DNA of 19,196 nt from a virus (lineage: Duplodnaviria; Heunggongvirae; Uroviricota; Caudoviricetes), in the IMG/VR virus record IMGVR_UViG_2534682325_000029; one strand, given 5' to 3'. Positions 17,158 through 19,196 of this stretch are shown piece after piece (position 1 is the first letter of the stretch; the number at the start of each line of letters is the position of its first letter). The position numbers and the translations under genes are program-made. Below the pieces are notes generated by a model. The model saw only the letters and a program-made list of their open reading frames with translations, ran no database searches and had not been told where the DNA came from.

Positions 17158-17238
17158 TAAAAAAACAGCCAGTACTGACTTTCGTCGGAGAAGTACTGAA
17201 CCGCCCCGGGTTTCCTGGAGAGTGTTTTATCTGTGAAC

Positions 17239-18129
17239 TCAGGCTGCCAGATCATCGTTTCCGATGGAAGCATAATAAGCTTTTTCTGCTTCTGCCGGAG
17301 GAGTATGGCCCAGCCTTCCCAGCAATCGTCGATTGTTATACCAGTCCACCCACGTTAGTGTGGCCAGTTCCACTTCTGCACGGTTTTTCCAGCTCTTACG
17401 GTGTATTACCTCCGCTTTGTAAAGACCATTGATGCTCTCAGCCATCGCGTTGTCATACGAGTCGCCTGTACTCCCTGTTGATGCCAGTAATCCGGCTTCT
17501 TTTAGTCGCTCCGTATAGGCCAGTGACACATACTGAGAGCCTTTATCGCTGTGATGGATGGTGCCAGACGGACGACGGGCCCACAACGCCTGCTCCAGCG
17601 CATCCAGCACGAATGTCGTTTCCATAGACGATGAGACCCGCCACCCCACGATGTATCCGGCAAACACATCAATGATAAACGCCACATAGACGAAGCCCTG
17701 CCATGTGCTGACGTAAGTAAAATCAGCCACCCACAGCTGGTCAGGTCGTTCTGCCACGAACTGACGGTTTACGCGGTCGCCTGCGGCAACGGCTTTCCGG
17801 CTGATGGTCGTACGGACCTTTTTACCCCGGAGAACACCGGCAAGTCCCATAACCGCCATGAGACGTGCCACTGTACATCTGGCCACCCTGATTCCTTCCC
17901 GTAACAACTGACGCCAGACTTTACGCACACCGTACACCTGATGATTTTCATCGTATACGCGCTGTATCTCTCTCTTCAGCCAGTCGTCGTGCTGCGCACG
18001 GGCACTGCGTTTATCCGGATGATGTCGCTGTTGCTGACAATGGTAATACGTTGACGGGGCAATATGCAGTTCGCTGCATACCGGTCCGACCCCGTACTGC
18101 TCACGCAGCTTATCCAGCAGTGGCATCAT
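17239..18129 (-). CDS. IS3-family transposase OrfB (DDE integrase core, 296 aa)
   Basis: Typical IS3 OrfB sequence, including [16 protein letters not shown] and a conserved Tyr-rich C-terminal region. Overlaps orfA by 4 nt in the -1 frame. Confidence 0.88.
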
Positions 18130-18452
18130 TTTTTCCAGAGGCGGTCGAACTCCGCCTTCGCAAAATAAGCGGAAGCCTGGCGAAGGATATCGTTACTGCG
18201 GCGCAGTTCACGATTTTCACGTTCCAGCTCTTTCAGACGCTGACGTTCAGCGCTGGTGAGCCCACCATCACCGCCCCCGGTATCCCGCTCATGCTGGCGA
18301 ACCCAGACACGCAGAGTCTCCGGCGTACAGCCAATCTTTGGGGCAATGGAACAAATTGCCGCCCACTGTGAGTCATATTCATCCTGACTTTCCAGAACCA
18401 TACGAATCGCCCGCTGACGGACTTCGGGGGAAAAACGAGTATTTTTAGTCAT
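18126..18452 (-). CDS. IS3-family transposase OrfA (HTH plus leucine zipper, 108 aa)
   Basis: N-terminal HTH ([15 protein letters not shown]) and coiled-coil [22 protein letters not shown] typical of IS3 OrfA. Ends in the A6 run that overlaps the orfB start. Confidence 0.88.
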
Positions 18453-18506
18453 CCTGTTTACCTCTTTCTCAGGGAGTTTAGTCTCCAGGATTTCCGGGGC
18501 GGTTCA

Positions 18507-18715
18507 CGGATCTGATCATTCCCCATACTGTTCATGATGGCGATCTGGAATGGCAGCGTTTTCCATTCGCCCTCACCATATGAAGATTCTTTAGGCAGAT
18601 AATAATTTTGATCAGCCCATTCAACTGGCGTCACCGGCAATGCCCTTATCAGGGGCTGTAATGCAGTTGTGACAGCGCTCATCATATTATTCAGTTGTTG
18701 CTCTGATATATTCAT
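18507..18715 (-). pseudogene. Terminase large subunit (lambda gpA-like), 5' fragment of about 70 codons truncated by the IS629-like insertion
   Basis: MNISEQQLNN...TPVEWADQNYYLPKESSYGEGEWKTLPFQIAIMNSMGNDQI aligns with the lambda gpA N-terminus (MNISNSQVNR...TAVEWADANYYLPKESAYQEGRWETLPFQRAIMNAMGSDYI, recalled). The reading frame runs into the IS terminal repeat and stops there. Confidence 0.8.
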
Positions 18716-19196
18716 CAAGTAAATCCGGTAATTTATCCCCTGCCCGCGCACACTGATTTGCCCCCTTAGCAATAAGGGTTTTCAGATGGTCAAGATGGCG
18801 CGGTGTTAAATCAGGAAACTGTCGCTGCATGGATAAAGGGATGGAATCAAGCGTACTGGATAACGCCATTGCCAGCTTACTGAGGGCAAAAATACAGAAC
18901 CCGGTGTCAATCAGTTTTCCTTTTGACACCTCATTTTTTAACTGCTGTGTAACAGCCTGTTCTGCTGTCAGTTCCCATCTGGCAATAAGCAATTTCTCCT
19001 CATAGTCGTCTTCGCTATCGCCATCAGGCACATCGTTTTTACTTCTCCTCAGATACGATATGTAAAAATCGCGCCAGGCATCCAGATCCAGTTGCCCTCG
19101 CTTATTCGATATCGGGGCACCCGGCAATTTCTGCAATCTGCGAAGCTGGCGATCGGTCAGACTTAAATGCCTGGCAACTTCAGTCTGCGTAGCCAC
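18687..19196 (-). CDS. Terminase small subunit, lambda Nu1-like (5' end beyond the window edge)
   Basis: IDTGFCIFALSKLAMALSSTLDSIPLSMQRQFPDLTPRHLDHLK aligns with lambda Nu1 VETAFCTFVLSRIAGEIASILDGLPLSVQRRFPELENRHVDFLK (recalled). Overlaps the gpA-like start by 29 nt, as in lambda. No in-window start codon. Confidence 0.75.
   Translation of the reverse strand: MATQTEVARHLSLTDRQLRRLQKLPGAPISNKRGQLDLDAWRDFYISYLRRSKNDVPDGDSEDDYEEKLLIARWELTAEQAVTQQLKNEVSKGKLIDTGFCIFALSKLAMALSSTLDSIPLSMQRQFPDLTPRHLDHLKTLIAKGANQCARAGDKLPDLLDEYIRATTE

Follow-up and report, generated by a model that had tools for sequence, protein, structure and literature searches.

By its sequence, the window (the whole 19,196-bp stretch of DNA analysed here) belongs to a defective lambdoid prophage of the Sp14 type found in E. 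coli O157:H7 and makes up its left two-fifths; near the right end of the window a complete IS629 element joins the esterase gene to an inverted piece of the terminase region. This joint probably arose by inversion between two oppositely oriented IS629 copies lying within Sp14, as comparison with two O157:H7 genomes suggests. Both the elements and the mechanism are already known, and what is new is this structural allele only.

Identity of the prophage

Window positions 1-18506 were 99.99-100% identical to the Sp14-type prophages of strains Sakai, G5295 and ECP19-598, and the same span was covered at 100.0% (rounded) in many other O157:H7 genomes. Over 1-18506 there was a single mismatch to G5295 (NZ_CP038346.1) and a single mismatch to ECP19-598 (NZ_CP066753.1), while two mismatches to Sakai Sp14 were counted over 6000-18506. 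The only SNP private to the window, T16122, is synonymous and occurred in no complete genome.

The gene layout was taken from the annotation of G5295, ECP19-598 and Sakai, together with Rfam matches for the tRNAs. At the left are a frameshifted integrase gene, an ExoVIII-type exonuclease gene and dicB, followed by a cI-like repressor gene, cro, O and P; next are nin-region genes, hokD, rusA and Q (13078-13767, plus strand), and after Q come three tRNA genes (Ile, Arg, Arg), a TerB-family gene and the esterase gene. The Sp14 order int-exo-cI-cro-O-P-nin-Q-tRNAs-esterase is present in full and is near-identical to that of Sakai Sp14. In the relatives, the Sp14 site is marked by flanking tRNA-Ser and mtfA. 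For Sakai Sp14 itself, defects in several morphogenesis functions were called in silico, and its packaged form was undetected experimentally (PMC2669165).

The IS629 element and its flanks

The features around the joint, from left to right, are as follows.

15307-17157, plus strand: SASA-family carbohydrate esterase gene (nanS-p/yjhS-type); Pfam DUF1737, SASA and DUF6645
17194-17196, no strand: TAC, half of the target duplication from the esterase-holin IS629 insertion; TAC stands on both sides of the copy in Sakai, G5295 and ECP19-598
17197-18506, minus strand: complete IS629/IS1203 element (IS3 family), 1310 bp, with terminal inverted repeats; annotated as IS629/IS1203 in public records
17239-18129, minus strand: IS629 orfB, DDE transposase core; Pfam HTH_21, rve and rve_3
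17521, no strand: lone site separating the two IS629 copies of the relatives; the window has C, the esterase-side allele, and the terminase-side copy of G5295 and ECP19-598 has T
18055-18171, minus strand: IS3-family ALIL pseudoknot, which stimulates frameshifting; Rfam RF01497
18126-18452, minus strand: IS629 orfA, 108 aa; Pfam HTH_Tnp_1, E=2.4e-12
18507-18509, no strand: CGG, reverse complement of the CCG duplication from the terminase-gene IS629 insertion, as seen in G5295, ECP19-598 and empty sites
18507-18715, minus strand: 5' part of a gpA-type gene for the large terminase subunit (69 codons plus 2 nt), matching nt 1-209 of Sakai ECs_2735 at 100% identity
18687-19196, minus strand: complete gene for the small terminase subunit Nu1, 169 aa (510 nt), with its GTG start at the window's last base; Pfam Phage_Nu1, E=1e-18

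A first-pass annotation, made from the sequence alone, had placed a complete, IS629-like element of 1310 bp after the esterase gene. Its coordinates and descriptions all proved correct, and the length and the assignment are exact: the element agrees with the IS629 copy in Sakai Sp14, annotated there as 'IS629 transposase OrfB / IS1203 family', at 1310 of 1310 positions, and has no mismatch to the esterase-side copy of G5295 and one to its terminase-side copy. Its size of about 1.3 kb, its imperfect repeats ending in 5'-TG...CA-3', its two overlapping open reading frames, its frameshift signal and its sequence identity are all those of the IS3 family and of IS629. The terminal inverted repeats, TGAACCGCCCCGGGTTTCCTGGAGA and TCTCCAGGATTTCCGGGGCGGTTCA, are 25 nt long, 88% complementary and bounded by TGAACC...GGTTCA, with IRR (17197-17221) beside the esterase gene and IRL (18482-18506) beside the terminase fragment. 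The RF01497 match, which covers the orfA/orfB overlap, reached 121.5 bits (gathering score 50), and over the same span of an identical IS copy RefSeq gives a 404-aa 'programmed frameshift' transposase; the orfB product is predicted to be made as an OrfAB fusion through a -1 frameshift.

The IS629 trait that the window copy does not show is a direct target duplication of 3-4 bp, its flanks being TAC and CGG. The left flank reads ...GAAGTAC and the right flank CGGATC..., with no direct repeat between them, as had been remarked in the first pass, and realignment brought out no matching duplication. A hidden duplication was considered and rejected, because the ends of the IS can be placed without ambiguity and are the same as in copies flanked by duplications. 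Target duplications of IS629 are 3-4 bp long, and flanks matched at only 21 of 47 O157 IS629 sites (PMC3271280), so copies without a duplication are common in this lineage. In the window, the lack of a duplication belongs to the recombinant joint and not to the IS629 element.

To the left, the junction is anchored by the esterase gene, the final late-operon gene ahead of the IS, which RefSeq names 'SASA family carbohydrate esterase' in both G5295 and ECP19-598. To the right, positions 18507-19196 are the reverse of Sakai Sp14 (locus L001, 16349-17038) at 100% identity. The earlier description of this part as about 70 codons of the large terminase gene and the small terminase gene, both on the opposite strand, holds well, the exact content being 69 codons plus 2 nt and the whole of Nu1, with a 100% match to Sakai throughout. 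The frame of the terminase fragment (A' below) runs on into the IS and stops at 18458-18460, giving a fusion open reading frame of 85 aa. No Pfam match was returned for this 85-aa fragment by itself, and it was identified through its 100% nucleotide match to the full-length annotated gene; a full-length homologue (locus L011) contains GpA_ATPase and GpA_nuclease domains. The Nu1 gene is 100% identical to Sakai ECs_2736 and intact, as it is in Sakai Sp14, but is inverted relative to Q and the esterase gene.

Standard arrangement in Sakai and other genomes

After the esterase gene a lambdoid phage had been expected to carry holin, endolysin and spanin genes, then cos, Nu1 and A, and this is the order of Sakai Sp14. 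There the same IS629 copy is a simple insertion after the esterase gene with a TAC/TAC duplication, and it is followed by holin, ydfR, endolysin, Rz/Rz1, pchC, ylcI, Nu1, an intact gene for a 642-aa terminase A, gpW and portal, all on the Q strand except ylcI, which alone is opposite. The Sakai copy ('IS.15') and the window copy share their 1310-bp sequence, insertion point, orientation and left flank TAC; in Sakai and 295 other complete genomes, however, the IRL end adjoins TAC and the holin gene, whereas in the window it adjoins CGG and the inverted terminase fragment. The esterase-side copy was present in every tested A6 clonal complex strain of O157:H7 (PMC3271280).

Among 24 long public contigs that encode an identical esterase protein, the eight distinct contexts displayed all had this gene order, in the standard orientation. 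In one of the eight, Nu1 is interrupted by an IS66-family element. Sp4, the one other Sakai prophage reported to share the Nu1 (and cos) sequence of Sp14, has its nu1 disrupted by ISEc8 (PMC2669165). Within the window, no holin, endolysin or spanin gene was found after the esterase gene, and no lysis or terminase module in the standard orientation was found after the IS.

Two IS629 copies in G5295 and ECP19-598

Of 5,426 complete genomes, only G5295 and ECP19-598 contain the junction between A' and IS629, and three draft assemblies have it as well. In the complete genomes the junction falls within Sp14, about 4.5 kb away from the first IS, and is part of a rare second IS629 copy inserted, with a CCG duplication, at exactly the terminase nucleotide where the gene breaks off in the window. 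A second copy had been predicted from the window, and here it is, in its parental position. The two copies have opposite orientations (transposase genes on the minus and plus strands, respectively) and are 4531 bp apart, with both orfA-proximal (IRL) ends pointing inward. In the RefSeq annotation of both genomes, gene A is also marked as frameshifted in its 3' part and the major capsid gene as truncated.

Each copy has its own target duplication. The ends of copy 1 read ...GAAGTAC[IS]TACTGGC... (TAC/TAC) and those of copy 2 ...GATCCG[IS]CCGCACTG... (CCG/CCG). The empty terminase site contains a single CCG (...GATCCGCACTG...) in Sakai and in loci L011 and L013, indicating that copy 2 came by ordinary transposition with a 3-bp duplication. 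In G5295 and ECP19-598 the segment separating the copies (4531 bp) has the standard orientation, whereas the 690 bp of it visible in the window are inverted.

Using BLAST, window 1-18506 aligned with G5295 (locus L003) 1002-19507 in the forward direction, and window 17197-19196 aligned with 25348-23349 of the same locus in reverse, with one mismatch. The single IS of the window thus bridges the flanks of two different G5295 copies. It combines the outer flank of copy 1 (esterase gene, TAC) with the inner one of copy 2 (A' and Nu1, CCG appearing here as CGG), and TAC plus CGG are exactly the flanks predicted for the left joint of an inversion.

Proposed origin of the joint

The proposed history has three steps. 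A simple IS629 insertion between the esterase and holin genes, with a TAC duplication, came first and is widespread among O157:H7. In a rare sublineage, represented by G5295 and ECP19-598, a second IS629 in the opposite orientation then entered the terminase large-subunit gene after nucleotide 209, with a CCG duplication. These two steps are shown by the sequences of the relatives. In the third step, which we infer from the joint, homologous recombination (presumably RecA-dependent) between the inverted 1310-bp copies would have flipped the intervening 4531 bp, carrying with it holin, ydfR, endolysin, Rz/Rz1, pchC, ylcI, cos, Nu1 and the 5' end of gene A. The left product would read esterase-TAC-[hybrid IS629]-CGG-A'(inverted)-Nu1(inverted), which is the arrangement of the window. 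The window holds 690 of the 4531 bp of the flipped segment, and the reciprocal joint lies to the right of 19196; there, about 3.8 kb of the inverted segment would be expected to run on to holin, followed by GTA, a second hybrid IS629 and CCG; the remainder of gene A (its 3' part) would come next, ahead of the head and tail genes.

The window IS629 would accordingly be a hybrid of the two copies. The C at 17521 is the allele required near the esterase side, and if the parent had the same SNP between its copies, it would place the crossover between 17522 and 18506. This site is compatible with the inversion model, but does not discriminate recombination from mis-assembly.

Recombination between two IS copies had already been suggested in the first pass, and the two inverted copies of G5295 and ECP19-598, 4531 bp apart and each with its own duplication, support that suggestion. 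Two of its corollaries need adjusting. The terminase gene had been described as cut and inverted at the junction; the fragment is inverted, but the cut was made by the second IS insertion and not by the inversion, since the gene is already cut in the non-inverted relatives. Similarly, the statement that the lysis cassette is absent is true within the window, where holin, endolysin and spanin genes are missing, but under the inversion model, and by the first pass's own prediction, the cassette probably lies inverted just beyond the window rather than being absent.

Distribution of the joint and other explanations

A megablast search of the junction region and the whole window against the 5,426 complete RefSeq E. 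coli genomes did not return the joint, the best matches ending at 18506. The exact A'::IS629 junction pattern gave no matches in IMG/VR, GTDB representative genomes or JGI metagenomes, and among phage records no place covered at least 80% of the query. An exact-protein look-up of the 85-aa A'-IS fusion found only six draft contigs of up to 4.7 kb, all ending in the IS. A 4.5-kb flip of lysis genes, cos and Nu1 between two IS629 copies was likewise not found in the literature or genomes searched. Since the joint is absent from the public sequence searched, the arrangement rests on one assembly.

Alternatively, the strain may have a G5295-type arrangement, the assembler having left the IS repeat by the wrong exit, which would produce just the sequence of the window, or having taken a minority orientation as the consensus. 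The four short-range junctions are the same in either orientation, so that reads longer than 1.3 kb are needed to decide; the esterase-IS629-A' joint is missing from all other assemblies searched, every draft that has the A'::IS629 junction breaks off within the IS, and the private SNP T16122 may just as well reflect an assembly error as a real difference. We nevertheless regard mis-assembly as unlikely, because a contig running through IS629, which has roughly 20 genomic copies, would hardly be obtained from short reads alone, whereas long reads span 1.3 kb easily, and because recombination is to be expected between near-identical inverted repeats of 1.3 kb that are 4.5 kb apart. A related possibility is that both orientations coexist in cultures of the sublineage, the lysis-pchC-cos-Nu1 block being a reversible, invertible cassette. 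We give this idea little credence; if it were true, each flip would move the lysis genes and the small terminase gene out of or into the Q-dependent late transcript, the direction of packaging from cos would be reversed, and the capacity of Sp14 to aid the packaging of defective neighbours such as Sp4 would change.

The joint might also connect two different prophages, as had been proposed at first as an alternative, if the esterase-side IS629 of Sp14 had recombined with an IS629 that had entered the terminase gene of a second lambdoid prophage with an identical Nu1-A segment, to give a large inversion or chimera. O157 genomes have two to three places similar to the 690-bp Nu1-A' segment, the cos and Nu1 sequences of Sakai Sp4 and Sp14 are identical (PMC2669165), and there are documented megabase inversions with one end in Sp14, such as that between Sp6 and Sp14 in FRIK804 relative to Sakai (PMC7430833). 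Those large inversions relied on prophage repeats and not on IS629 (PMC7430833), however, and in complete genomes the exact A'::IS629 junction with CCG occurs in the Sp14-type prophage only, 4.5 kb away and in the orientation that fits a flip. As the relatives have both partners within one Sp14-type prophage, a local flip is more parsimonious, a second prophage is not needed, and we consider the two-prophage origin very improbable. Least credible of all is a single-step inversion coupled to transposition, in which one IS629 would have attacked the nearby terminase gene intramolecularly with no two-IS intermediate. Replicative intramolecular transposition would end with the same flanks, X-IS-rc(TSD)...IS-TSD, a pattern established for cointegrate-forming elements; IS3-family elements, however, move by a copy-out/paste-in mode through a circular intermediate that gives simple insertions and does not fit a one-step inversion, and the CCG/CCG simple-insertion intermediate exists in two complete genomes near-identical to the window. 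Such an event is thus extremely unlikely, and the local inversion between the two Sp14 copies is the reading followed below.

Expected consequences of the proposed inversion

The large terminase subunit was already destroyed by the second insertion, and the inversion would add a further defect. With the segment inverted, Nu1 and the lysis genes would now be antisense to Q-dependent late transcription, and about 5.8 kb would separate the two parts of the terminase gene, which would be on opposite strands. A prophage with antisense lysis and Nu1 genes and a split terminase gene would be unable to supply terminase or to time its own lysis. Read-through of IS629 by the late transcript is plausible by analogy, since an stx2::IS629 phage still formed plaques (PMC7430833), and so it would be the orientation of the lysis genes, not the IS, that uncouples them.

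In Sakai, the Sp14 terminase has been proposed to package the defective prophage Sp4 (PMC2669165). Sp14 lacks a complete terminase in the present strain, and helper interactions among its defective prophages may differ; packaging help for Sp4 would be lost in the sublineage that has IS629 in the terminase gene.

The known prophage-repeat inversions of O157:H7, in which one partner can be Sp14, are likewise products of homologous exchange between inverted repeats (PMC7430833; PMC8743559). IS629 is a recognised driver of O157 genome polymorphism (PMC3271280; PMC9943667). The documented O157 cases examined differ from the present one in being either megabase prophage-repeat inversions or insertions, excisions and deletions of IS629; a 1.7-kb inversion of tail genes is also among them (PMC8190617). 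The general significance of the allele is small, in that it adds one more documented route by which IS629 reshapes the O157:H7 prophage pool. The IS629 copy in the terminase gene is the mark of a rare sublineage, and the structural variant could serve as a marker for typing or for tracing outbreaks. As a point of method, the mismatched 3-bp flanks of one element were sufficient to predict the two-IS parental structure from the raw sequence.

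A probable IS629 excision, and insertion elements in the packaging genes

The IS629 copy that follows the esterase gene on its holin side was absent from one O157:H7 genome, CP038366.1 (L013), at the following site:

11866-11920 of CP038366.1: empty site, equivalent to window positions 17172-17196 plus flanking DNA on the holin side

The L013 site reads GAAGTAC followed by TAAGAAGG, while occupied sites read GAAGTAC, then the IS, then TACTGGCTAAGAAGG. Compared with occupied sites, L013 is missing the IS, one TAC and 4 further bases (TGGC). The pattern resembles imprecise, IEE-type excision of IS629 more than a site that had never been occupied.

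In another O157:H7 genome, CP038425.1 (17043-19998), an IS66-family element interrupts the Sp14-type small terminase gene, Nu1. A similar case is reported for the Sakai prophage Sp4, in which nu1 is disrupted by ISEc8 (PMC2669165). IS elements are repeatedly striking packaging genes of these O157 prophages.

Inverted lysis cassette in a draft contig

Positions 1-4683 of a draft contig (NHVT01000064.1, assembly GCA_002194605.1) carry a lysis cassette in inverted orientation that is 90-95% diverged and consists of PerC, Rz, endolysin and holin genes. Its junction lies approximately 430 bp upstream of Nu1 and the 5' fragment of the large terminase gene interrupted by IS629 (Nu1-A'::IS629), and a contig in the standard orientation (L005) is present in the same assembly. 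The contig could be chimeric, or the arrangement could come from a second prophage or from a genuine rearrangement.

Window ends and minor features

The window starts exactly at the stop codon of a 340-aa integrase ORF, a gene that is frameshifted according to the annotation of relatives, and its last position, 19196, falls exactly at the start codon (GTG) of Nu1. Trimming was thus done at gene boundaries, and the right end of the window is uninformative as to a contig or prophage end.

At position 16122 the window has T in place of C, a synonymous change (AGT vs AGC) in codon 272 of the esterase gene. Direct comparison showed that this T is shared with neither G5295 nor Sakai, and, judged from BLAST scores, no complete RefSeq E. 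coli genome perfectly matched the surrounding stretch. A SNP specific to this strain or an error in sequencing accounts for T16122.

Downstream of the three tRNA genes (13978-14224), the gap that separates the DUF3927 ORF from the esterase gene holds one sRNA family match:

14998-15170, + strand: STnc100 sRNA family (RF02076; Rfam, 100.8 bits)
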